The notes beneath the pieces are model-generated. The model searched no databases. It saw only the letters and a program-made list of their open reading frames with translations, and was not told the origin of the DNA. From positions 64,891 through 128,890 of the forward strand of contig JADFXX010000002.1 in the NCBI GenBank assembly GCA_015233335.1: a stretch of 64,000 nucleotides of DNA. The letters are read 5' to 3'. Within the stretch, counting starts at the first letter, position 1; every line of letters begins with the position of its first letter. Source of the DNA: Candidatus Omnitrophota bacterium (GTDB taxonomy: Bacteria > Omnitrophota > Gorgyraeia > Zapsychrales > Fredricksoniimonadaceae). Position numbers and translations under genes: made by a program. Below, in pieces: positions 41,139-52,994 of the stretch.

Positions 41139-41167
41139 ATTATACCAAGGTTATCTGACTTTGTTTA
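41139..41167 (-). promoter_or_regulatory. Candidate extended -10 promoter for the TPR-exbBD operon
   Basis: The minus strand reads cTAAACAaagtcagataaccTTGgTATAATatttc (TGnTATAAT, 17-nt spacer). The -35 falls in the last codons of uvrA. AAAGGAAG SD precedes the ATG at 41101. Confidence 0.45.
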
Positions 41168-43976
41168 AGAAATGTTTCAGGTATTGACCGGTGTACGAGG
41201 TGGGATGACGCACCAGGTCCTGAGGCGATCCTGCAAAAACAACCTCTCCTCCTTTGTCACCTCCGTCGGGCCCAAGATCAATGATATAATCCGCAGTCTT
41301 GACCACATCCAAATTGTGCTCGATAACGAGCACCGTATTACCTCTGTCGACCAAACGCTGCAGGACTCCCAATAGTTTATCCACATCGGCAAAATGCAAG
41401 CCGGTTGTAGGTTCATCCAAAATATAAAAAGTACGCCCCGTGGCCGCTTTGCACAATTCACTGGCCAATTTGACCCTCTGCGCTTCACCGCCGGACAAGG
41501 TCGTGGCCGCCTGTCCCAGACGAATATATCCTAAACCCACGTCATTTAAAGTTCGCAATATATTCTGGACTCTTGGGATATTTTCAAATATTTCAAGGGC
41601 TTGAGACACTGACAGGTTGAGCACATCCGCAATGTTCTTGCCTTTAAATTGCACCTCCAAGGTCTGGTCCGTAAAACGCCGCCCGTGGCATATGGCGCAC
41701 TCAACATAGACATCCGGCAAAAAATGCATTTCAATTTTCTTGATCCCATCCCCTCCACAGGATTCGCAACGCCCGCCTTTAACGTTAAAACTGAAACGCC
41801 CCGGCTTATATCCCCGTATTTTGGATTCAGGCAACAGTGCGAATAGATCGCGAATGGGGGCAAAAACACCCGTATAGGTGGCCGGATTAGAGCGCGGCGT
41901 ACGGCCAATAGGTGATTGGTCTACCACAATGACTTTATCAATATGCTGTATGCCTTCGATTTTCTTATACCTGCCCGGTTTCTCCCTGCTGCCATAAATT
42001 TTATGAACCAAGGCTTTATATAAAATGTCCGTAACAAGGGTCGATTTACCCGAACCCGAAACACCCGTCACACAAATAAATGCCCCTAAGGGAAGGCTGA
42101 TGTTAATATCTTTTAAATTATGCTCTGCGGCACCGATGATTTTCAGAAAATCAGTTGCAATAATGTCTCTGTGTTTATCCGGACGTTTGATTTGATACTC
42201 TCCCGTGAGATACCGTCCGGTCAAAGAATCCGGACATTGGGTCAACCCCTTGACTCCTCCGGCATAAATCACACGTCCGCCCTGCTCGCCGGCGCCGGGA
42301 CCTAGATCGATCACATAATCTGCTCTTCGAATGGTATCTTCATCATGCTCAACAACGATCAGGGTATTGCCTAGATCTCGCAGCGCATGAAGGGTAGATA
42401 AAAGACGGTCATTGTCCTTTTGATGAAGTCCGATGCTGGGTTCGTCTAATACATAAATAACACCCACCAACCCGGAACCGACCTGAGTCGCCAGGCGTAT
42501 GCGTTCTGCCTCACCGCCGGAAAGGCTGCTGCTGCGTCTGTCTAACTGCAAGTACTCAAGGCCCACATTAATACAAAAATCCAACCGGCGGTTAATCTCT
42601 TTGATAATCTCTTCACTGATGATTTTCTTATCTTGAGGAAGCTTTAGCTGACTGAAAAATTGTTTGGCCTCTTTGATAGAAAACGCTGTCAGCTGGGTAA
42701 TATCCCGATCGGCGACTTTGACTGCTAGTGATTCCTTTTTAAGACGCCGTCCCTGACATTCAGGACAAGGGGACTCATACATAAAGGAAGCGATCTCTTC
42801 TTTAAGCCAATCGCTGTCCGTTTCCCTAAATAATCGCTGCAGATATTTGACCACCCCTTCAAAAGTCCTTCCCCAAATTTCAACCTCCGAGCCATAAAAA
42901 ACCATATGTTTGAATTTCTTATCGAGGTCTTTAAACGGCTTATGCGGGTCTATCCTATACATGCGGGCGATTTCCCTCAATACGGCTCGGTAATACATCA
43001 TGTACCCACGCTGGCCGCGCTTCCAGGGAGCGATGGCGGATATCCACGGCTTAGCATCGTCCGGCACCAAAGCCTGCGGATCAATTTCCATCTTGGTCCC
43101 CAGCCCATTGCAATCGGAACAGGCGCCATATGGCAAATTAAAAGAAAAAATACGCGGCTCAATCTCACTTAAAGAAATGCCGCAGTCCCCACAGGCATAT
43201 TTTTCACTGAAGATCTGCTGAGGTTTTACATTATTAAAATCAAGAATCATCCCCCCTTCGCCTGTCTTTAATGCTGTTTCAACAGAGTCGGACAAACGCT
43301 TACGCAGCCCCTCGCGGATAGTCAGACGGTCAACCACCACTTCAATGTGGTGGATTTTATATTTATCGAGTTTAAAAGAATCCCCCGTTTCATAGATTTT
43401 CCCGTCAATACGCATACGGGCGAAACCGGACTGAGCGACCTGCTTTCCAATATTACGATACTCGCCTTTACGTCCGCGTACCAAAGGACTTAAAATATTA
43501 ATTTGAGTCCCCAGGGGTAGCTCTAAAACAATATCTACGATCTGCTGAGCACTTTGCATTTCAATTTTCTTGCCACAGGAGGGACAATGGGGAGTTCCGA
43601 CACGTGCAAACAAAAGACGCAAATAATCATAAATTTCTGTCTGGGTTGCAACGGTAGAGCGCGGATTGCGGCTGACTGTTTTTTGTTCGATTGAAATCGT
43701 CGGGGAAAGCCCTTCGATATGGTCCACCGCCGGCTTTTGCAGCTGATCTAAAAACTGGCGGGCATAGGCCGAAAGACTTTCCACGTAACGACGCTGGCCT
43801 TCGGCATAAATGGTATCAAAAGCCAAAGACGACTTGCCGCATCCGCTGACACCTGTGATCACCACAAATTGATTGCGGGGAATGATCAAATCAATGTTTT
43901 TAAGATTATGTTCACGGGCCCCGCGGATCATGATAGAGCTCATCGGGGACACCCCTTGATCTTCATCTATTTTCAT
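41151..43976 (-). CDS. uvrA: Excinuclease ABC subunit A
   Basis: 941 aa. IRGAREHNLKNI, two ABC modules (GVSGCGKSS, GVSGSGKST, LSGGEAQR) and zinc-finger cysteines. An alternative ATG start lies at 43943. Confidence 0.96.
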   Translation of the reverse strand: MKIDEDQGVSPMSSIMIRGAREHNLKNIDLIIPRNQFVVITGVSGCGKSSLAFDTIYAEGQRRYVESLSAYARQFLDQLQKPAVDHIEGLSPTISIEQKTVSRNPRSTVATQTEIYDYLRLLFARVGTPHCPSCGKKIEMQSAQQIVDIVLELPLGTQINILSPLVRGRKGEYRNIGKQVAQSGFARMRIDGKIYETGDSFKLDKYKIHHIEVVVDRLTIREGLRKRLSDSVETALKTGEGGMILDFNNVKPQQIFSEKYACGDCGISLSEIEPRIFSFNLPYGACSDCNGLGTKMEIDPQALVPDDAKPWISAIAPWKRGQRGYMMYYRAVLREIARMYRIDPHKPFKDLDKKFKHMVFYGSEVEIWGRTFEGVVKYLQRLFRETDSDWLKEEIASFMYESPCPECQGRRLKKESLAVKVADRDITQLTAFSIKEAKQFFSQLKLPQDKKIISEEIIKEINRRLDFCINVGLEYLQLDRRSSSLSGGEAERIRLATQVGSGLVGVIYVLDEPSIGLHQKDNDRLLSTLHALRDLGNTLIVVEHDEDTIRRADYVIDLGPGAGEQGGRVIYAGGVKGLTQCPDSLTGRYLTGEYQIKRPDKHRDIIATDFLKIIGAAEHNLKDINISLPLGAFICVTGVSGSGKSTLVTDILYKALVHKIYGSREKPGRYKKIEGIQHIDKVIVVDQSPIGRTPRSNPATYTGVFAPIRDLFALLPESKIRGYKPGRFSFNVKGGRCESCGGDGIKKIEMHFLPDVYVECAICHGRRFTDQTLEVQFKGKNIADVLNLSVSQALEIFENIPRVQNILRTLNDVGLGYIRLGQAATTLSGGEAQRVKLASELCKAATGRTFYILDEPTTGLHFADVDKLLGVLQRLVDRGNTVLVIEHNLDVVKTADYIIDLGPDGGDKGGEVVFAGSPQDLVRHPTSYTGQYLKHFLNKVR

Positions 43977-43993: not shown

Positions 43994-45586
43994 TTACTTA
44001 ATACTGGCATTGCTTTTTTGAAGCATCCATTTATGCCAGCACTTAATGACGCCCCATTTAACCAGAAGATAACCGAATTGCCCCATCAAGCCCGGAAAAT
44101 ATGAAAACTCTAAGAATCTTAAATGATTAAATCCTCTTTTAAATAAATAAATAGATCTGACAATAAATAATATCCCCGGAAATTCATGCTGCTTTTCTCC
44201 ATATGGTTTGGCGTGCTTTAGAAAAAAATCAAAAATAGCTCTTGGCGGTTTAAATATGTCCATTATAAAAACCGCAATATTCGCCAAGGAAGGTTTAACC
44301 AGTGTATAATTTTTATCATTTATGGCGGGATGGCTGATATTCATCTGCTTAAAATTTCTTTCCAGCTCGGTGTTAGGCATGACTCTTAAGGAAAAAATAT
44401 TTAAAGTAAAAGGGCGAGGCATATGGTAAATAAATTCTAACGTATCTATAACATCTTGCCGCGTTTCAATAGGATTATCCAGAATAATATCGTAAGTCGG
44501 CGGAATCATATAGGGAACGAATTCATTGATAGTCACAATCGCCTGTCTTGTCATTTCTGCTGTTGCAGGACGCTTGTAAAATTTGAGGATTCGATCGCTT
44601 CCGCTTTGAATACCCATCTTTATACGGTACATGCCGGCTTTGACTAGCAATTTTAACTTTTCTTTTTTAACTAAACTCGGCAAAGCCCCGACAACACTAA
44701 AACTTATATTAATCTCTTTTTTCCATTTTTCCGAAAATTCTTCTAAAACGGACATAGGAAGACCAATAAAACTGTCATCGTGAAATGTCACTGAAGAAAT
44801 AAAGGGGTATTTCCTTTGCACCTCTTTGATCTCACTAATTATACGATTGACTGATGTATAACGGACTTTTCGATAGTTTCCGTCATTATCAATAAACTTT
44901 GAATTACTGCAATACGCACAATTATACGGGCATCCGATAGACCAGACCGTATGGTAAGAAACACCGTTCAATTTTAGATATTCACGAGCATCCAATAGGA
45001 CAAAACCAATATTTCTTTTATAAATAAATTCGAAATCACCAGCATGGACCGGCAACGGTAACTGATCCATATCTTCTTGGGTCTGAAGGGAAGAAAAATC
45101 ATTCTTAATAATCCTTCCCTCCTGATTAAACCAAAAATTCTTTGTCCTGGTATAATCAGCCTCCTGTTGATATAAGCTGAAAAACTCTTTAAATGCCAGC
45201 TCTCCTTCCCCTACACAAATAGCATCCACATAATTAATAGCATCATCGGGATTAACAATAGGATGGATCCCGCCCCAAACTAAATACACATAAGGATTGA
45301 TTGCTTTAATTCTGTTAACGATCACTTTCGTTAAATCGGCATATGGAGTCATTGAAGAAAAACAAACCAAATCAGCTGTTGCCAAATGACGAGAAATGCG
45401 GTCTAAGTCATCTTGCGCGATATCTGAAGTACATCGACCTAGTAATAAAGATGCGATCGACATATGGTTTGTCGGAACAATATAATAGACTCCGGTGTCT
45501 GGATGAATAGACCGGGCCAAGGAGCACATTTTCCTAAAACCACAAGCTATAATGCCTCCATCAATTGACACAAAATTCATTTTCAT
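43994..45586 (-). CDS. B12-binding-domain radical SAM enzyme (class B type), function unknown
   Basis: 530 aa. N-terminal Rossmann-like B12-binding-type domain ending CVGEGE. Radical SAM cluster motif GCPYNCAYC. Confidence 0.78.
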   Translation of the reverse strand: MKMNFVSIDGGIIACGFRKMCSLARSIHPDTGVYYIVPTNHMSIASLLLGRCTSDIAQDDLDRISRHLATADLVCFSSMTPYADLTKVIVNRIKAINPYVYLVWGGIHPIVNPDDAINYVDAICVGEGELAFKEFFSLYQQEADYTRTKNFWFNQEGRIIKNDFSSLQTQEDMDQLPLPVHAGDFEFIYKRNIGFVLLDAREYLKLNGVSYHTVWSIGCPYNCAYCSNSKFIDNDGNYRKVRYTSVNRIISEIKEVQRKYPFISSVTFHDDSFIGLPMSVLEEFSEKWKKEINISFSVVGALPSLVKKEKLKLLVKAGMYRIKMGIQSGSDRILKFYKRPATAEMTRQAIVTINEFVPYMIPPTYDIILDNPIETRQDVIDTLEFIYHMPRPFTLNIFSLRVMPNTELERNFKQMNISHPAINDKNYTLVKPSLANIAVFIMDIFKPPRAIFDFFLKHAKPYGEKQHEFPGILFIVRSIYLFKRGFNHLRFLEFSYFPGLMGQFGYLLVKWGVIKCWHKWMLQKSNASIK

Positions 45587-45597
45587 AAAATCGATTG

Positions 45598-47046
45598 TTA
45601 CCCGATATCCTGATAGTTCGCTTTATCAATGTAAAAAACTTTCTTCAACAAACTAAAAAAACCAACAACACTGATTCCAAAGGGAAAGACCCTCCAGTTG
45701 CAGTAGTTACGCACACAAAAACCCATCAAATCAAACAAAATATTGGGCTTTTGATAAATCCAATGACGGGTAATCAAACGGCGCATCCAAGGGAACAAAT
45801 TAGCGATCGGTGCTAATATAAGTATGTTTCTATGGATCTGACGCTCGCGATCGGTCACCGTGTTAAGAACAGAACCTGCCTGCATGCTAACAGGGATTGT
45901 TTTTAACATCGTATCGGATAGGTTCATATAACCCTTTTGGCTAACATAATCCCCCAGCGAAGTGCCAGCAAAAGGAGTAAAAACAGTAAACCCCGAATAA
46001 GCCGGCCGACAATCCAAAGTAAATTCCAGTGACTCAAGATCATCTTGAAGTGTCGTTTCCGGTAAGGCAAGAATAGTGTTACTAAAGACCCGAATATCAA
46101 GTTCATGAAAAATTTTAAAAGCCTTTTTAATAGACTGGTCCGACACTGGACGCTCAAGTACCCGTCTACGGATCGTTTCATCTCCTGATTCGATACCCAT
46201 CATCACTGAATAACAGCCGGCTGTCTTTAACGCCTTAATAAGTTTTTCCTCCACAAGGTTAGGATTAATAAGACAATAAAACGGGACCCCAATCCGTGAA
46301 CGATATTTTTCTACGAACTCTTCGACCCAAGCATCATATTTAATCACAAAAGTATCATCACCAAAACGCATGAAATCCGGACGGTATTGGGCCTTGACCC
46401 GGCCTAACTCTGTCACAAGATTCTCAACAGAACGCCGGCGAAGGATATCCCCCTTACCTTTATGCATGAGATTAAAAGCGCTGTTAAAACAATAAGAACA
46501 GCTATAGGGGCATCCGCGTGTGGCAAAAAAAGTTTTCATTGGAATATAGTTAAACGGTTCTTTATGCGCGACTAATTCCCGGTCCGCAAACGGCAGAGAA
46601 TCTAGATCGGCGACCAAATCACCTTGTGGATTTTTAAATTCCTTAGTATGTACATTCATAAGCATCCGAACACTCTTCCTTTGTATCAATCCCTCCAACA
46701 AAGGCACAATAATCATATCTCCCTCACCCACGACCACGGCATCTAAGGCCCATGTATCGACAATTTGCGGATAATAGGTTGGGTGAGGACCTCCCGCTAT
46801 AATGACTGTATATGGAAAAAGTTGGCGGGCTTTTTCCACAAATAATCTAAATCTTTCTGCTTCTGTCGTCATAAAAGAGCAGGCAATGACCTGGGGGCCA
46901 TACGTCTTAATCATATCTATGGTCTTGCCCTCTTGGAGGGCACAAATATCGGTTTCATGGCCATGAGCTTTCAATATTGCGGAAAGCTGCATAGCCCCCA
47001 TCGGCTCGATAATTGAAAATAGATCTGTAACGAAAATAACGCGCAT
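45598..47046 (-). CDS. B12-binding-domain radical SAM enzyme (class B type), function unknown
   Basis: 482 aa. N-terminal domain ending VVVGEGD. Radical SAM motif GCPYSCSYC. Paralogous architecture to the downstream gene. Confidence 0.78.
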   Translation of the reverse strand: MRVIFVTDLFSIIEPMGAMQLSAILKAHGHETDICALQEGKTIDMIKTYGPQVIACSFMTTEAERFRLFVEKARQLFPYTVIIAGGPHPTYYPQIVDTWALDAVVVGEGDMIIVPLLEGLIQRKSVRMLMNVHTKEFKNPQGDLVADLDSLPFADRELVAHKEPFNYIPMKTFFATRGCPYSCSYCFNSAFNLMHKGKGDILRRRSVENLVTELGRVKAQYRPDFMRFGDDTFVIKYDAWVEEFVEKYRSRIGVPFYCLINPNLVEEKLIKALKTAGCYSVMMGIESGDETIRRRVLERPVSDQSIKKAFKIFHELDIRVFSNTILALPETTLQDDLESLEFTLDCRPAYSGFTVFTPFAGTSLGDYVSQKGYMNLSDTMLKTIPVSMQAGSVLNTVTDRERQIHRNILILAPIANLFPWMRRLITRHWIYQKPNILFDLMGFCVRNYCNWRVFPFGISVVGFFSLLKKVFYIDKANYQDIG

Positions 47047-47103
47047 ATTGACACTATGGGTTGATTATCATGGATGTCCTACAGGGACAGTGATTGGCCA
47101 ACA

Positions 47104-47955
47104 TCAGGGATCAATTTTGACCTTATGCCATTGATCCCCCACTTTACGCATAGCCCAAAAACCACAGTAGCTGGAAATATCCGTCCCAAAAAACTCCGAG
47201 ACCGCCAGACACACGCCCGGATGATAAGTCTGCTTCGTCTTTGGGTCGACCACCATATTGACTTCTTTGTGTTCTTCGGCATAGTCCCTGTCGATATTTA
47301 CAAGTGAGCCATCAAAATCATCACCGGCTATGATGCCACCTTCGCCTATAAGCTTTGCGGCATTATATAAATCTTTTTTTATTCCTGAGTAACTGTGGTC
47401 CCCATCAATATAAACCATATTAAAAATTCCCCTCCTCAATAAAGGCAACACACGTTCACTGTATCCCTTGAGAGGACAAATCACATCTGAATGATGGGAT
47501 GTCTGAATGTTATGTAAGAATAGCTTGAAAACACTGCCCCTTTTTAAAGCCTTGTTCATAATAATCGTTGCTGAATTTACTTTTTCCTGCTGTTCATCAA
47601 TGTAGGGTTCCCATGGATCAACACATAAAACCATCCCTTTTTTCCCGGCGAATTTGATAGTATCCGCCCATAGCACCGCAGAATCACCTGCCCAGGACCC
47701 AATTTCTAGTAAATAAAAATATTCCTTGTCCTTAATCTCCTTTTGGAGAAGCCGTCTCATATACGGCTTTCTTTCTTCCCATGTTTGACCAGCCAATGCC
47801 ACGGTTCCAAAATAAGGCTTTTGGCTCATTAAGCAATATATGTACCGGACACGATCTAATTCAGAGACTATTTCTGCCAACCAAGGCGATCTGACGACCC
47901 AAGCAAACAGCCCAGGAAAATTCTTTTTAAAAAAAACAACAGTTTTCTTATCCAT
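47104..47955 (-). CDS. Class I SAM-dependent methyltransferase (Methyltransf_24/CmcI-like)
   Basis: 283 aa. LLEIGSWAGDSAVLWA (motif I) and VYIDGDHSYSGIKKDL are typical of this O-/C-methyltransferase group. Confidence 0.65.
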   Translation of the reverse strand: MDKKTVVFFKKNFPGLFAWVVRSPWLAEIVSELDRVRYIYCLMSQKPYFGTVALAGQTWEERKPYMRRLLQKEIKDKEYFYLLEIGSWAGDSAVLWADTIKFAGKKGMVLCVDPWEPYIDEQQEKVNSATIIMNKALKRGSVFKLFLHNIQTSHHSDVICPLKGYSERVLPLLRRGIFNMVYIDGDHSYSGIKKDLYNAAKLIGEGGIIAGDDFDGSLVNIDRDYAEEHKEVNMVVDPKTKQTYHPGVCLAVSEFFGTDISSYCGFWAMRKVGDQWHKVKIDP

Positions 47956-49606
47956 TGCTCTTTAATTTCCCTAAAAGATTCTTTGCCGCTTCAAAATTTG
48001 GGTTTAATTCCAATGCCTTTTCTAACGCTTCTTTTGCCTTCATATTATTGTTCTGAGAATGATATATCTGCCCTAAATCAAAATAGGGCTCATCATAATA
48101 AGGAAAATTTAGAATAATCTGCCCTAGCAGTGCTTGAGCTCTTTTAATTTCCCCAAGTCTAATATAACACTCTGCCAAAAACAAGAGTTCTCTGGGTAGA
48201 TGATCCCCTAATAGCACGCTTTTTTCAAAATTACTTTCGGCCTCTTTTAAAAGCCCTGCATTAAAATAAACGCTTCCTAACAAAGCATACCCTTGACCAA
48301 ATGCCGGATAGTCCCTGACCCATGCCGAGCCCACATCATAATCACTTCTGAAGTCATTGTTTAAAAACAGTGTCCTCGTGATACAAATCAAGATTACCCC
48401 GCCATGAAGAATGTTTGATAAAGACCGAGAATATGCCCTGAACAAGTGATTCTGAAATGTTTCATGTAAAAAAAACGCTAAAACGATCAACAATCCGATC
48501 GATGGCAAATACATGAAACGATACGCCATAGGATTCGCTATGGGAATCAAATTGGATACAGGAAGATAAAAAACAACATGCCATAATAGAAAAAAAAAGC
48601 ACTTTTTATAATTACTCCACAGCCGATACATGCCTATTATAAATACAATCAATACGATCCCCATACCTGCCGTTGCCAGACTTAAGACCTGGGGGATTGG
48701 CGGCTTATATTGTCCCGGGATCGTTTTCACGGTCCAAGGCATTAATACATTAATTAAATAGCTGTACCAAATATACCCTATTTCAAGGCAGTGATTGATC
48801 CAAGATCCTCCGATCCAATGAAAAGAAACAAGGGGACTGGGAAAGACAAAAAGGTATAGATACAAATAAAAGAAAAGGATCAAAATAAAGCCGGTATAAA
48901 CCATTGCTCTCTTCTTTAGCTCCAAGACCGGTCCACGTAGAAGTCGGTCAGACATCAAAATCACAAACGGTAAGATAAAAGCTGATTCCTTACTAAATAA
49001 TGCAAAGAAACACATGACCAGAGACCCCACATAATGCTTCTTACTGACATATCCCCCTTGTTTAAATTTTATCCAGAAATAGAAAGAACTTAAAACAAGC
49101 ATCGCTGTAAAAATGTCCGCTCGATAACTCATGACAGCAACCGCTTCTGATTGAATTGGATGTAAAGAAAAAAGGAGAGCTGCAAACAGCCCTAAAATCG
49201 AGGACAGAAAAATTCGATTCACAACCAAGAAAACTAAGATAGAATTGACGCAATGAATCAAAATGTTGATAAGATGAGAGCCGTATGGTTTTGCTTGGAA
49301 CAAATAATAATCGAGAAAATAGGTCAAATTTGAAATCGGTCTATACGTATTTCTCCCAGGCCCCAAATCAGCTGGAGAGTCAAAATGAAGCTCCATTTCC
49401 CTAATATTAGAAATATAGTCCTTCCCAAATAGCCGCGGAATATTCTTCCATGTATGATAAAAAGTATTTCTCTCAAAAACAGACTGATCATCTCCAATGT
49501 ACTGATTAAAAAGCACCGGGCTATATATTAAAAAAGTTACAAAGAAAACTAAAAACGCCGGTCTTTTTTTAAAAAAATTAAATATAAAGAGCATTTTTTC
49601 AGTCAT
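47948..49606 (-). CDS. Polytopic GT-C-type (PMT/ArnT/TMTC-like) glycosyltransferase with C-terminal TPR domain
   Basis: 552 aa. About 11-12 TM helices, an acidic YIGDDQ in the first extracytoplasmic loop, and C-terminal TPRs (AESNFEKSVLL...AKEALEKALELNPNFEAA). Confidence 0.6.
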   Translation of the reverse strand: MTEKMLFIFNFFKKRPAFLVFFVTFLIYSPVLFNQYIGDDQSVFERNTFYHTWKNIPRLFGKDYISNIREMELHFDSPADLGPGRNTYRPISNLTYFLDYYLFQAKPYGSHLINILIHCVNSILVFLVVNRIFLSSILGLFAALLFSLHPIQSEAVAVMSYRADIFTAMLVLSSFYFWIKFKQGGYVSKKHYVGSLVMCFFALFSKESAFILPFVILMSDRLLRGPVLELKKRAMVYTGFILILFFYLYLYLFVFPSPLVSFHWIGGSWINHCLEIGYIWYSYLINVLMPWTVKTIPGQYKPPIPQVLSLATAGMGIVLIVFIIGMYRLWSNYKKCFFFLLWHVVFYLPVSNLIPIANPMAYRFMYLPSIGLLIVLAFFLHETFQNHLFRAYSRSLSNILHGGVILICITRTLFLNNDFRSDYDVGSAWVRDYPAFGQGYALLGSVYFNAGLLKEAESNFEKSVLLGDHLPRELLFLAECYIRLGEIKRAQALLGQIILNFPYYDEPYFDLGQIYHSQNNNMKAKEALEKALELNPNFEAAKNLLGKLKSNG

Positions 49607-49616
49607 TGGAGTTTTA

Positions 49617-50723
49617 TCACCATTTAAAAGCTATGCCGGTACGCTGGCATTGCTTACAAATAGACATGCTTCTTCGTCCTTTGGTCTTCATCAATTCTCT
49701 TGTAGCCTGTGCAGCAGGACCATTCCAAATATCTTTTAGCTGAGAAGCTCCTGTCTTCCAAACAGCATAAGGCTTACAACCGCTCCAGATCACGCCTTCA
49801 CAACACTGTAAAACTTCACCGTCAAAATTAACCTGCATGCCCTTCCATAACCAATCACAGGACATAGGCAATGTTTCTGTCGGGAGGGGCGTTTCCTTGT
49901 CTTCCAAACCGCCCCGGGGATTCCCCTGTCGAAAACTAAGCATAAGGCCACATTCACGGCAAAACTGACGAATCAATGGAATTTGATGGCGATTATAATT
50001 ATAGGTTATCCAATCAATCAGAATGACCGTGTGTGATTTTAGTTCTTTTTTTAAACGCGCCAACATACGTATATTATTCTTAAGTTTTTCCACATCACCA
50101 TAGCGAATTTGAACACTGTAAACGTCCTGGGTCATGCCTCCTAATTGTATCTTGATTAAATCAATACCCGCATTGAGAAAAGCACGCGTATTATCCTCCG
50201 TTAACAAAAGACCGTTGGTCGAAATCATGGTCATTACTTTATGTTCTGTTGAAAACCTGACCAACTCAGTCAGGCCCTTATACAAGAGCGGCTCTCCATT
50301 CGTATATAGCACCGCAATAAGAACATCGTCTTTCAACTGTCCTATGATATCTAGGGCCATATCGACAGGCATTCTCCCCTTAGAAATGCTATCAATATAA
50401 GGATGCTGGGGGTTAATGTTATAAATTCTTCCCTTAGCATCCCGACAAAAAAGGCAGCCCGCATTACATTCATTCCCAAGTTCTAAACTAAGAACCAGCG
50501 GAGAGGTTGCCGAAATCTTTGTTTTAAAAAAATACGCCCAAGAACATACGAACACATTCCATAGTTTGCGGACATTGATCTTTCCGCAAGAGACAGCGGT
50601 TAAAAAAAGTTTAATCTTCAAAAAAATATAACGATTATGCTTGGGAGGAGGGGGAACTTTGTTCATCATCAAACCCATAGATTGAATCAATAATATAGCT
50701 TGGACGCATTTTAGTCTGTTCAT
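49617..50723 (-). CDS. Radical SAM enzyme with SPASM/twitch-like C-terminal cysteine motif
   Basis: CX3CX2C motif in ELGNECNAGCLFC. C-terminal CDWLWKGMQVNFDGEVLQC (CX12GX4C) and ICKQC. The true start is probably internal (MGLMMNK, about 50678), because the long ORF overlaps the GT2 gene. Confidence 0.75.
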   Translation of the reverse strand: MNRLKCVQAILLIQSMGLMMNKVPPPPKHNRYIFLKIKLFLTAVSCGKINVRKLWNVFVCSWAYFFKTKISATSPLVLSLELGNECNAGCLFCRDAKGRIYNINPQHPYIDSISKGRMPVDMALDIIGQLKDDVLIAVLYTNGEPLLYKGLTELVRFSTEHKVMTMISTNGLLLTEDNTRAFLNAGIDLIKIQLGGMTQDVYSVQIRYGDVEKLKNNIRMLARLKKELKSHTVILIDWITYNYNRHQIPLIRQFCRECGLMLSFRQGNPRGGLEDKETPLPTETLPMSCDWLWKGMQVNFDGEVLQCCEGVIWSGCKPYAVWKTGASQLKDIWNGPAAQATRELMKTKGRRSMSICKQCQRTGIAFKW

Positions 50724-51654
50724 GAGCTGAATTCAAATACAACCCGATCATTCCCAGACAAAATAATTGTACTCCACCAATAAAGAGAATCACCACCATC
50801 AATACTGTCCCCTCTGAAATGGTGTGACCCAACCACTTCTGATAAAGAATATAGAGAACAAAAAGAAAATCTCCTAATATGGAACACAAACCGCAATACG
50901 ATGCAATCTGTAAAGGGACAGATGAAAAATTAATGACAGCCGCATTTAAAAAATTACTTATTACCTTTCTGCCTAAAACAAAGAATTTGCTTTTGCCGGC
51001 AAAACGGGCATCGCGATTATAAGAAATAAAGCTTTGTTTAAAGCCCACCCAAGCAACTATCCCGCGCATGAAAGGATTGATCTCTTTAAACTGCAAAATG
51101 TAATCCACAGCCCTGCGGGAAAGCAATTTAAAATCACCCGCCTCGGATGGGATTGGCACACTGGAATAGCGGTTAAGTATGTAGTAACCAATCTTTGTAA
51201 TAAATAATTTAAATGCTGATTCGCCCTTGCGACTCGTCCGTACGGTATGTACAACATCAATCTGAGGATTGTTCAGGTAATTTTCTAACATTTTTATGAT
51301 AAGTTCTGGAGGATCCTGCAGGTCAGCATCCATATAAACAATAGCGTCGCCTCGAGCATGCGCCAAGCCTGCCATCACACAGGGAGCAACTCCAAAAACA
51401 CGGGACATATTGATGATACAAATATCCTTATAACCGGCAGATAGCCTGAGCAATACAGGCAATGAGTCATCACTGGAGGCATCATTAACAAAAATCATTT
51501 GATAACCGCTAATAAGATGTTTCAAAGCGGCCTCATTCATAACTGTACGGGTACGCTGGACCAATTCTGAAAGAACGTCCGCCTCGTTTCTAAAAGAAAA
51601 CACAATGGAGAGGAAAACCGAAGGTCTTTGTTGAGGATTTATCGAATATGACAT
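50635..51654 (-). CDS. GT2 polyprenyl-phosphate glycosyltransferase (GtrB/ArnC/DPM1-like)
   Basis: 339 aa. VFLSIVFSFRNE, FVNDASSDDS and YMDADLQDPPE motifs. Two C-terminal TM helices as in GtrB/ArnC. Confidence 0.82.
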   Translation of the reverse strand: MSYSINPQQRPSVFLSIVFSFRNEADVLSELVQRTRTVMNEAALKHLISGYQMIFVNDASSDDSLPVLLRLSAGYKDICIINMSRVFGVAPCVMAGLAHARGDAIVYMDADLQDPPELIIKMLENYLNNPQIDVVHTVRTSRKGESAFKLFITKIGYYILNRYSSVPIPSEAGDFKLLSRRAVDYILQFKEINPFMRGIVAWVGFKQSFISYNRDARFAGKSKFFVLGRKVISNFLNAAVINFSSVPLQIASYCGLCSILGDFLFVLYILYQKWLGHTISEGTVLMVVILFIGGVQLFCLGMIGLYLNSAHEQTKMRPSYIIDSIYGFDDEQSSPSSQA

Positions 51655-51660
51655 TCTAAA

Positions 51661-51669
51661 ATTATATCA
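51661..51669 (-). promoter_or_regulatory. Extended -10 element (TGaTATAAT) 6 nt upstream of the GT2 start codon
   Basis: The minus strand reads cgacaTGaTATAATtttagaATG. There is no SD between the -10 element and the ATG. Confidence 0.4.
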
Positions 51670-51734
51670 TGTCGATAATAATTTCACATAATTCATTTCA
51701 TTTTCGTTCATAATTAGATCGACCCATAAAAAAC

Positions 51735-51809
51735 AAGAAAAGTAGGGATAGATACTACTTTCTGTAAATACCTTTTATACAGAAACTAGTATCTATCCCT
51801 ACTTTTCTT
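51735..51809 (-). terminator. Very long hairpin (32-bp stem, 1 mismatch, 11-nt loop) followed by a T-run: intrinsic terminator
   Basis: Arms aagaaaagtagggatagatactactttctgta (51735-51766) and tacagaaactagtatctatccctacttttctt (51778-51809). On the minus strand the hairpin is followed by GTTTTTTATGG. It starts 30 nt after the stop of the 90-aa gene. Confidence 0.75.
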
Positions 51810-51839
51810 ATAAGAACAGCAACCTAAAAAAACAAGGCC

Positions 51840-52112
51840 TTATTTGCGTTTCTTGGTGGTCTTCTTAGCAGTTTTTTTCTTCTTTGTTCCGCCGCGGACC
51901 ATTTTAGCGCAGGAAATATCACCTTGCTTATCGATAAAATAAAGATACCCGACTTCTCTTTTGATGCCTACCTTCGCCACTTTCTTAGGGGCGCCGCCTT
52001 TTTTGTCTCCGCGAGCCATCTTGGCCGAAGAAATGTCCCCTTGTTTGTCAACGAAATAAAGGAACCCCTTTTCTTTCTTGACACCTACCTTAGCAACTTT
52101 TTTAGTAGCCAT
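51840..52112 (-). CDS. Small, highly basic protein made of two tandem ~39-aa repeats plus a Lys-rich tail (uncharacterized; possible nucleic-acid binder)
   Basis: 90 aa. Repeats are KKVAKVGVKKEKGFLYFVDKQGDISSAKMARG and KKVAKVGIKREVGYLYFIDKQGDISCAKMVRG. The tail is TKKKKTAKKTTKKRK. Strong SD AAGGAGG lies 7 nt upstream of the ATG, and a dedicated terminator follows. Confidence 0.75.
   Translation of the reverse strand: MATKKVAKVGVKKEKGFLYFVDKQGDISSAKMARGDKKGGAPKKVAKVGIKREVGYLYFIDKQGDISCAKMVRGGTKKKKTAKKTTKKRK
51891..52103 (-). repeat. Intragenic tandem duplication (two 96-nt units, period 117 nt / 39 aa)
   Basis: Units 52008-52103 and 51891-51986 encode 32-aa blocks with 26/32 identical residues. 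The DNA is clearly more diverged than the protein. Confidence 0.8.
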
Positions 52113-52148
52113 GCTTTTTCCTCCTTGGTTGTGGATTGATTTGAAATT

Positions 52149-52994
52149 TCAGGTCCCGATTTTAACTCCCTGAAAATATTCTTTTAAAGTGCGTACCGCC
52201 GATAAAACAGCCAAAAAACTCGTTTTAGGGTTGTCCGGACAGACCACGTTCTCAGTTTTTGTCACCAGACGTCCGAATGTGCCGACCACCTCGATCTCAT
52301 GTGAGTTAACTTTAAATTCAGGGGAGGTGGCAATACGGATGCGCAACTTATCTTTTGAGTTAGACGCCAGGGCAATCGTCGCAGCCACATTAATATTCTG
52401 GGGAAAACACTTGACCGCTTCTCGGACATTACCTTCAAATAGGATGGTTTCCTTTTTTATCGCAGATAAATTGATCCGATGCTCCTGCACATAGGCATTA
52501 TCTGCAAAACCGTAAGTCGGCTTGCGCGTTGTTAAGCGAATCGAATCGATTCGCTGCAAGGCCGCAGCCTTAATAGCATCAATTCCGGCAATAGCGCCCG
52601 AAGGAATAAGGACCCTTACTCCCTGTTTTTGGGCCAATTTAAAAACAGACTCTCCCTCGATAAATTTGCCAACACTCATAATCAAAACATCCTTACGCGC
52701 CAATAAAGCCTGACGAACCAGGTGATGTGTGTCCGGGGCATTAACGGCTTCAACCACCAGGTCGCAATCAGCTAAAAGATCGAAATAGGATTTTTTTACG
52801 ATATTTTTGTAAGGAATGTGCTTGTACAAATTAAGGGATTTTGAAGGATTAATGTCAAAGAGTGCCGAAACCACCGCTTCATCTGCGCATTCAGTCTTGA
52901 TGCTCCGTGCAATACGAGAGCCGATGGCACCGCAGCCTAAAACACCTACTTTGATTTTAGAACTTCCCTTGGTTCTTGATGGAGACAATGACAT
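52149..52994 (-). CDS. nadX: L-aspartate dehydrogenase
   Basis: KVGVLGCGAIGSRIA NAD site. PSGAIAGIDAIKAA, FPQNINVAATIAL and DNPKTS match Thermotoga-type NadX. ATG at 52994; the track ORF reaches 53027. Confidence 0.8.
   Translation of the reverse strand: MSLSPSRTKGSSKIKVGVLGCGAIGSRIARSIKTECADEAVVSALFDINPSKSLNLYKHIPYKNIVKKSYFDLLADCDLVVEAVNAPDTHHLVRQALLARKDVLIMSVGKFIEGESVFKLAQKQGVRVLIPSGAIAGIDAIKAAALQRIDSIRLTTRKPTYGFADNAYVQEHRINLSAIKKETILFEGNVREAVKCFPQNINVAATIALASNSKDKLRIRIATSPEFKVNSHEIEVVGTFGRLVTKTENVVCPDNPKTSFLAVLSAVRTLKEYFQGVKIGT

Follow-up and report, generated by a model that had tools for sequence, protein, structure and literature searches.

What is the role of a strongly basic protein of 90 amino acids (aa) whose gene follows nadX in an uncultured bacterium and whose sequence resembles no curated family? 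The question is raised by a stretch of 64,000 nucleotides (nt) of a Candidatus Omnitrophota genome (contig JADFXX010000002.1), referred to here as the window, in which a first-pass annotation had singled out this gene. We put at about even the chance that its product is a sequence-non-specific DNA-binding, nucleoid-associated architectural protein of Omnitrophota and other uncultured lineages; DNA as the ligand, the mode of binding and high abundance are what we infer. The gene itself is real and under strong purifying selection.

Two repeats and a lysine-rich tail

According to the open reading frame (ORF) list and its translation, the gene starts with ATG and encodes MATKKVAKVGVKKEKGFLYFVDKQGDISSAKMARGDKKGGAPKKVAKVGIKREVGYLYFIDKQGDISCAKMVRGGTKKKKTAKKTTKKRK, in which 29 Lys and Arg residues stand against 7 Asp and Glu (net charge about +22), a size and composition in keeping with the small and basic character of nucleoid-associated proteins. 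The gene and the parts of its product are as follows.

51840..52112, minus strand: coding sequence, up to and including the stop codon, of the basic 90-aa protein with its two repeats (ORF list and translation, homologues, and a nonsynonymous divergence, dN, far below the synonymous one, dS)
52008..52109, minus strand: repeat 1, residues 2-35, predicted as a strand, a basic loop and the beta-hairpin GFLYFVDKQGDISSAKMARG (BLASTP and AlphaFold)
51891..51992, minus strand: repeat 2, residues 41-74, predicted as a strand, a basic loop and the beta-hairpin GYLYFIDKQGDISCAKMVRG (BLASTP and AlphaFold)
51843..51890, minus strand: Lys-rich tail, residues 75-90, GTKKKKTAKKTTKKRK, marked by a drop in the predicted local distance difference test (pLDDT) and variable among relatives

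When both halves of the protein were compared by BLASTP, 26 of 34 residues were identical (E 8e-19), so that the two near-identical tandem repeats described by the first-pass annotation are borne out. In the 33-codon register of the repeats 25/33 residues are identical, compared with 70/99 nucleotides, and different codons are used at 14 of the 25 identical residues; the repeat DNA is therefore more diverged than the protein, also as had been claimed. The further proposal that selection acts on both copies agrees with a dN of 0.04-0.2 against orthologues while the proportion of synonymous differences (pS) is 0.43-0.96, mostly saturated, and both repeats are kept in hundreds of species. In one relative (L006) the basic protein is 95% identical to that of the window, compared with 85% for nadX and 91% for the aminotransferase of the same locus, hence it is more conserved than its neighbours.

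AlphaFold models had a mean pLDDT of 43 when built with 35 close relatives, and of 87.5 with a predicted template modelling score of 0.68 when built with 54 diverse relatives. In the latter model the core, including the linker between the repeats, has pLDDT values of 89-96 and the tail values of 63-66; strands are predicted at residues 4-7, 17-21 and 27-31 of repeat 1 and at 43-46, 56-60 and 66-70 of repeat 2, with no helices. The prediction is thus, with confidence, of a single compact all-beta domain whose two halves, one per repeat, match each other, and of a flexible tail after it. This model matches the three-stranded unit per repeat that had been read from the sequence, and the Lys-rich C-terminal tail noted at the same time is predicted to be disordered, its length and sequence varying between relatives.

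An unnamed family in bacteria, archaea and phages

The protein gave no Pfam match at E<=10, no significant NCBIfam match and no PADLOC model, and a PHROGs scan returned weak matches (best E 0.0038). PDB chains were searched with the single sequence, with a two-repeat profile and with a single-repeat profile, and no match was obtained at E<=10; a Foldseek search with the predicted structure, a check that the first-pass annotation had proposed, likewise matched no solved structure. No description of a two-repeat family of this kind was found in the literature searched by motif strings and by topic. The earlier view of an uncharacterized family thus stands, and we regard the protein as a member of a new family, possibly with a new fold, that would do a known type of job.

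Two labels met along the way were set aside. A match to BaiB/acyl-CoA ligase covers the A8 hairpin alone and was treated as chance; the name YcgL/UPF0745 is a JGI label on two relatives alone (P0339 and P0352), the window protein has no such match in Pfam or among PDB sequences, and YcgL is not among the Pfam families listed (25 of 40) for the 54 relatives. What that list does show are beta-hairpin look-alikes below threshold, namely DUF5050, WW and choline-binding repeats. The WW domain, choline/cell-wall-binding repeats, DUF5050 blades and the acyl-CoA ligase A8 hairpin all share with our protein an aromatic-x-aromatic-x-D-x-x-G pattern, which accounts for the weak sub-threshold matches to these families; such matches lie far below the cut-offs and cover the hairpin only, and they are local look-alikes, not relatives.

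The family itself is large. In a collection of 5.8 billion proteins 3,767 homologues were found at E<=1e-3, all of them unnamed or hypothetical and none with a precomputed Pfam domain. At 90% identity the family counts at least 3,700 clusters. At 50% identity it counts 957, the number that matched at E<=0.001 when a profile was run against 1.84 billion cluster representatives; 312 of these reached E<=1e-10. These roughly 960 clusters have no curated model, and a Pfam or NCBIfam entry could be built from the present alignments. In those alignments each unit of 34-39 aa carries K-x-G-[IV]-[KR]-[KR]-E-x-G followed by [YFW]-L-Y-[FY]-[IVL]-D-K-x-G-[DN]-[IV], and a basic tail is usual; the window protein has this pattern in both repeats. 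E-values in the profile search of the family go down to 1e-59. Most members are 66-110 aa long and have two repeats and a basic tail. The tail varies among relatives from some 5 residues to over 60, and long (KKKAV)n-like tails occur in Woesearchaeota and Endomicrobia.

As for the phyletic distribution, the survey of which had also been proposed, relatives occur in at least 562 species genomes (one genome per species was scanned), in bacteria and in archaea, and in addition on viral contigs. The best genome matches of the window are Candidatus Omnitrophota; further carriers are Elusimicrobiota, including Endomicrobia, and the archaeal Woesearchaeota, together with single genomes labelled Nitrospirae, Myxococcota, Dependentiae (Babeliaceae) and Auribacterota. 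Contigs labelled 'uncultured Planctomycetales' show the Omnitrophota gene order around the homologue and probably belong to the same phylum. No cultured organism was seen among the named matches, every one of which is a metagenome-assembled genome. Woesearchaeota copies are about 72-79% identical to the bacterial protein, which suggests a ligand common to both domains of life. The contig of the closest relative (L106, ENA contig_33322, 404 kb) has broken nadX, uvrA and dapA genes and a broken tail of the small protein, probably as a result of long-read indel errors, and the 105-aa length of the relative P0001 is accordingly an artefact.

The relatives on predicted viral contigs, of which there are 18, are 33-53% identical. 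Among these, two contigs answer the question, raised by the first-pass annotation, of whether single-repeat versions exist: a complete ORF of 45 aa with its own GGAGG, identical in L102 (1852-1989) and L103 (4001-4138), matches the single-repeat profile at 99% probability, and no second repeat is found in any frame. It lies among helix-turn-helix (HTH), ParB/methylase and C5-methylase genes. The existence of such a form would make the two-repeat protein a dimer fused into one chain. Proteins starting with MARG and having one repeat were not accepted as true single-repeat forms, the one checked (P0193) being truncated at the end of its contig.

Candidate ligands of the module

The guess of the first-pass annotation, a binder of the nucleoid, of RNA or of the ribosome, gains indirect support from the company that the module keeps, which suggests DNA more than RNA. 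Among the 150 best representatives roughly one in three exceeds 130 aa. In P0184 two repeats are joined to an HNH endonuclease (PF01844, E 1.3e-13, above the cut-off), and its gene (L107:1054-1659, L108:3803-4408) is part of an element that also carries genes for an integrase, a serine recombinase and a SIR2-like protein; P0180 combines two repeats with a domain assigned to PDC-S18, a candidate defence family (E 2e-12), and this domain also matches the NucS nuclease core weakly (E 0.012). Both fusions may be new defence or homing nucleases. Phage copies stand in modules of DNA metabolism: between primase and helicase genes on one viral contig (L092), after helicase, DNA methylase and resolvase-like nuclease genes on two others (L100 and L096), and ahead of the ParB/methylase and C5-methylase genes on L103. 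The chromosomal neighbours that point the same way are uvrA in Omnitrophota, recA near one Endomicrobia locus (read by eye from its N-terminal sequence) and, in four of seven loci of the Woesearchaeota group (L021, L046, L061 and L083), a GTPase together with OapB (PF09846) and OapC (PF09845), which we take to be archaeal origin-associated genes. This last arrangement suggests that the archaeal homologues lie near a replication origin and that the gene has been transferred between the two domains; judging by the same OapB and OapC neighbours, the archaeal contigs look genuine.

If the protein does bind DNA, its predicted architecture offers a way in which it might do so. The two repeats of 34-39 residues would pack together as a single compact domain of roughly two-fold symmetry, equivalent to the dimer expected of the 45-aa phage form but with its halves covalently joined; DNA may be contacted by the basic loops (K-x-G-[IV]-[KR]-[KR]-E-x-G) and by the conserved aromatic hairpins (G[YFW]LY[FY][IV]DKxGD), and the disordered tail, rich in Lys, Ala and Thr, could neutralise phosphate charge and promote compaction or bridging in the manner of the H1-like tails of Hc1/Hc2 and HupB.

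On this DNA-binding reading the closest functional analogy would be with Sul7d (Sso7d/Sac7d) and Cren7, single-gene chromatin proteins of Crenarchaeota that bind DNA through a beta-sheet surface and are likewise small (60-90 aa), very basic and all-beta. These, however, are single SH3-like five-strand barrels without an internal repeat or Lys-rich tail, and have a different phyletic range; neither the protein nor the matches listed for the 54 relatives gave a Pfam hit to them, nor did Foldseek yield a significant PDB match. A Lys/Ala/Thr-rich low-complexity tail of variable length is shared with chlamydial Hc1/Hc2, linker histone H1 and mycobacterial HupB, and relatives with longer K/A/V tails extend the likeness, but the folds differ: the window protein is modelled as an all-beta tandem repeat, not as a winged helix (H1), an Hc1 domain or an HU fold, and it has no Pfam match to any of these. 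HU/IHF and AbrB/MazE-type proteins similarly work as dimeric or pseudodimeric beta-elements, and our protein, with its beta-hairpins and basic loops, is predicted to be two-fold; nevertheless the helical body of HU and the swapped-hairpin barrel of AbrB/MazE have no counterpart by PDB profile search or Foldseek. For HU/IHF (Bac_DNA_binding, which we take to be PF00216) there was no Pfam or NCBIfam match, the model is free of helices, and R-x-G-x-N-P-x-T occurs nowhere in the window.

Several observations weigh against the DNA-binding reading. By sequence or by Foldseek no similarity to known DNA-binding folds was detected, and with the AlphaFold model Foldseek found nothing significant in PDB (best E 0.4, TM score at most 0.31) or among viral models. 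Terminators separate the gene from uvrA in relatives, so that this link is one of synteny only. Other neighbours have no relation to DNA (nadX, panC and aspS, and glmU-prs-L25 by eye), and neighbours differ between phyla. Finally, many fusions are to membrane proteins, of the DoxX, OmpA-type and other transmembrane kinds, and these would fit any cytoplasmic polyanion or a membrane equally well.

Part of this evidence can be turned in favour of RNA. A protein associated with RNA or the ribosome, such as an RNA chaperone or a ribosome accessory or hibernation factor, would bind RNA, structured or single-stranded, through exposed aromatic residues on its beta-strands and through the basic tail; we regard this as unlikely, though deserving attention. 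The protein is very basic, it has conserved aromatics on its strands, and its KGYLYF motif is reminiscent of RNP1 in cold-shock domains (KGFGFI); it is conserved at the level of ribosomal proteins and is retained in Endomicrobia endosymbionts, Dependentiae and DPANN, whose genomes are presumably reduced, which makes retention there unusual. Its neighbours include the translation-related aspS, L25/Ctc (by eye) and a GTPase with a 50S-binding GTPase domain, and the fusions with a C-terminal membrane anchor bring to mind the ribosome-binding proteins YqjD/ElaB. However, where a fusion partner is clearly an enzyme of nucleic acids it is a DNA nuclease, the phage copies lie in modules of DNA replication and methylation and not near translation genes, and Pfam and NCBIfam scans revealed no similarity to ribosomal-protein or RNA-binding families. 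The five-strand OB barrel of the cold-shock domain with its RNP1/RNP2 motifs was found neither as a Pfam CSD match nor by Foldseek.

The membrane fusions lead to another candidate, a general adaptor. Here the module would bind polyphosphate, the acidic phospholipids of the inner membrane leaflet or another target of negative charge, or else a conserved protein partner, and the free 90-aa form would be a soluble regulator or scaffold. The module often occupies the predicted cytoplasmic end of membrane proteins, among them DoxX (P0238), an OmpA-type protein (P0192) and the multi-span proteins P0189, P0226, P0163, P0140 and P0121, and fusions to HEAT repeats and to GAF plus RING domains occur as well; a surface rich in basic and aromatic residues is typical of peripheral membrane binders. 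Such an adaptor would leave the nuclease fusions and the phage replication-module context unexplained, H1-like tails that vary in length are a common trait of DNA condensers, and the high identity between bacterial and archaeal copies argues against a lineage-specific protein partner; archaeal membrane lipids, moreover, are unlike those of bacteria. On balance we find an adaptor of this type rather improbable.

Zinc ribbons and possible HTH regions are found as fusion partners as well, and multi-repeat proteins occur. P0207 has a possible HTH region after its repeats, and in seven of 15 Elusimicrobiota loci (L039, L050, L053, L056, L060, L074 and L084) a small HTH_17 gene, excisionase/MerR-like, lies just upstream of the homologue; taken together these may reflect a functional link. 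DUF520/YajQ lies downstream in three of the same 15 loci. Five proteins of 171-176 aa (P0146, P0160, P0188, P0196 and P0197) have two repeats and then, at the C-terminus, a conserved domain (KPxVKYLVY...VNxVPKKY) some 95 aa long, for which no Pfam, NCBIfam or PDB-sequence match and no homologues by word-indexed search were obtained; it is a second unnamed domain.

The viral contigs raise yet another explanation, namely that the gene is a mobile, phage-derived accessory one, for instance an anti-defence or defence-associated DNA mimic or binder, rather than a housekeeping gene. Besides the 18 viral contigs, the integrative element that carries P0184, the match of P0180 to a candidate defence family and the high identity between bacteria and archaea, which implies horizontal transfer, all speak for mobility. 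The chromosomal position, on the other hand, is fixed: the order nadX-gene-uvrA is nearly universal in the Omnitrophota loci examined, and of 85 loci 58 have nadX beside the gene and 47 have uvrA. Strong purifying selection and the lack of any PADLOC match for the window protein also speak against it, and the mobile-looking DNA of the window is a neighbouring 7.7-kb insertion and not the basic-protein gene. A mobile accessory role thus appears very improbable.

Returning to the architectural DNA-binding protein, a bolder version of it can be put forward, which we offer tentatively and consider somewhat less probable than its opposite. The family would represent chromatin proteins of a new structural class, in which a pseudo-dimer of tandem beta-meanders bears an H1-like tail, and would act as a major nucleoid organiser in the uncultured, mostly small-celled Omnitrophota, Elusimicrobiota and Woesearchaeota. 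It would have passed between the two domains of life, and phages and mobile nucleases would have taken it over as a module for binding DNA. Should this hold, a new fold would join HU/IHF, H-NS, Fis, Alba, histones, Sul7d, Cren7 and MC1, and it would be the first chromosome-packaging protein tied mainly to uncultured phyla. Whatever the ligand, the bacterial-archaeal identity of about 75%, the presence in phages and the reuse as a targeting module on nucleases are unusual.

Expression signals, the long hairpin and the 7.7-kb insertion

The gene had been described as stand-alone, which is overstated: it lies 36 nt downstream of nadX on the same strand and closes a conserved same-strand array, dapF-dapA-dapB-aminotransferase-folK-panC-nadX. 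The signals around it are listed below.

52120..52126, minus strand: Shine-Dalgarno sequence AAGGAGG, exactly 7 nt 5' of the ATG (direct reading of the sequence)
52159..52188, minus strand: promoter-like TTTAAA-18-TAAAAT in the last codons of nadX, weak and unproven (consensus scan, 9/12 matches)
51733..51811, minus strand: near-perfect AT-rich hairpin of 79 nt, 25+8 = 33 base pairs (bp) with an 11-nt loop (folding)
51725..51732, minus strand: U-tract GUUUUUUA directly 3' of the hairpin (sequence and folding)

The strong Shine-Dalgarno sequence claimed at the outset is there (52126..52120 as read on the coding strand, 7 nt ahead of the ATG), and a GGAGG-type sequence occupies the equivalent position in three relatives (L001, L004 and L106). 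With the promoter the outcome was mixed, for the sequence is present inside the 3' end of nadX as described, but sites of this type occur at chance level (2 found against 2.7 expected from shuffled sequences).

The hairpin has a free energy of -53.6 kcal/mol (z = -10 against shuffles) and is followed by GUUUUUU. It is the only long inverted repeat within the 64-kb window. Searches of the window and of metagenome contigs for further copies found none, hence a repeated mobile element is not evidenced. Rfam matches on it were sub-threshold and of the generic long-hairpin (miRNA precursor) type, and were discarded. A terminator consensus scan did not report it, since an AT-rich stem of 33 bp with an 11-nt loop falls outside the usual form. 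Relatives, including the 96%-identical L106, have short ordinary GC-rich terminators in its place, without the long hairpin and with uvrA within a few hundred bases. Thus the exceptional hairpin of the first-pass annotation is present, with its stem and U-tract, but is no feature of the family; it probably acts as a terminator in this genome, and its length more likely reflects the history of an insertion than the needs of the gene.

The hairpin stands at the junction between that insertion and the basic-protein gene. Between this gene and uvrA (41151..43976) lie six minus-strand genes (43994..51654) encoding ORFs of 530, 482 and 283 aa, a 552-aa TPR protein, a radical SAM/SPASM protein and a GT2 glycosyltransferase; the Pfam scan of these genes covered three of them, namely GT2, radical SAM/SPASM and TPR. 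In the 85 related loci nothing corresponds to four of these genes, and the other two have weak counterparts (23-32% identity) in one or two loci, while uvrA directly follows the small gene in 47 related loci. The region 43994..51654 therefore looks like a strain-specific insertion of 7.7 kb, with a role perhaps in glycan or peptide modification. In the interval 51655..51700 (minus strand) a TATAAT is separated by about 6 nt from the start codon of the GT2 gene (ATG at 51654), and no Shine-Dalgarno sequence was seen there; the GT2 transcript may be leaderless, starting just past the long hairpin.

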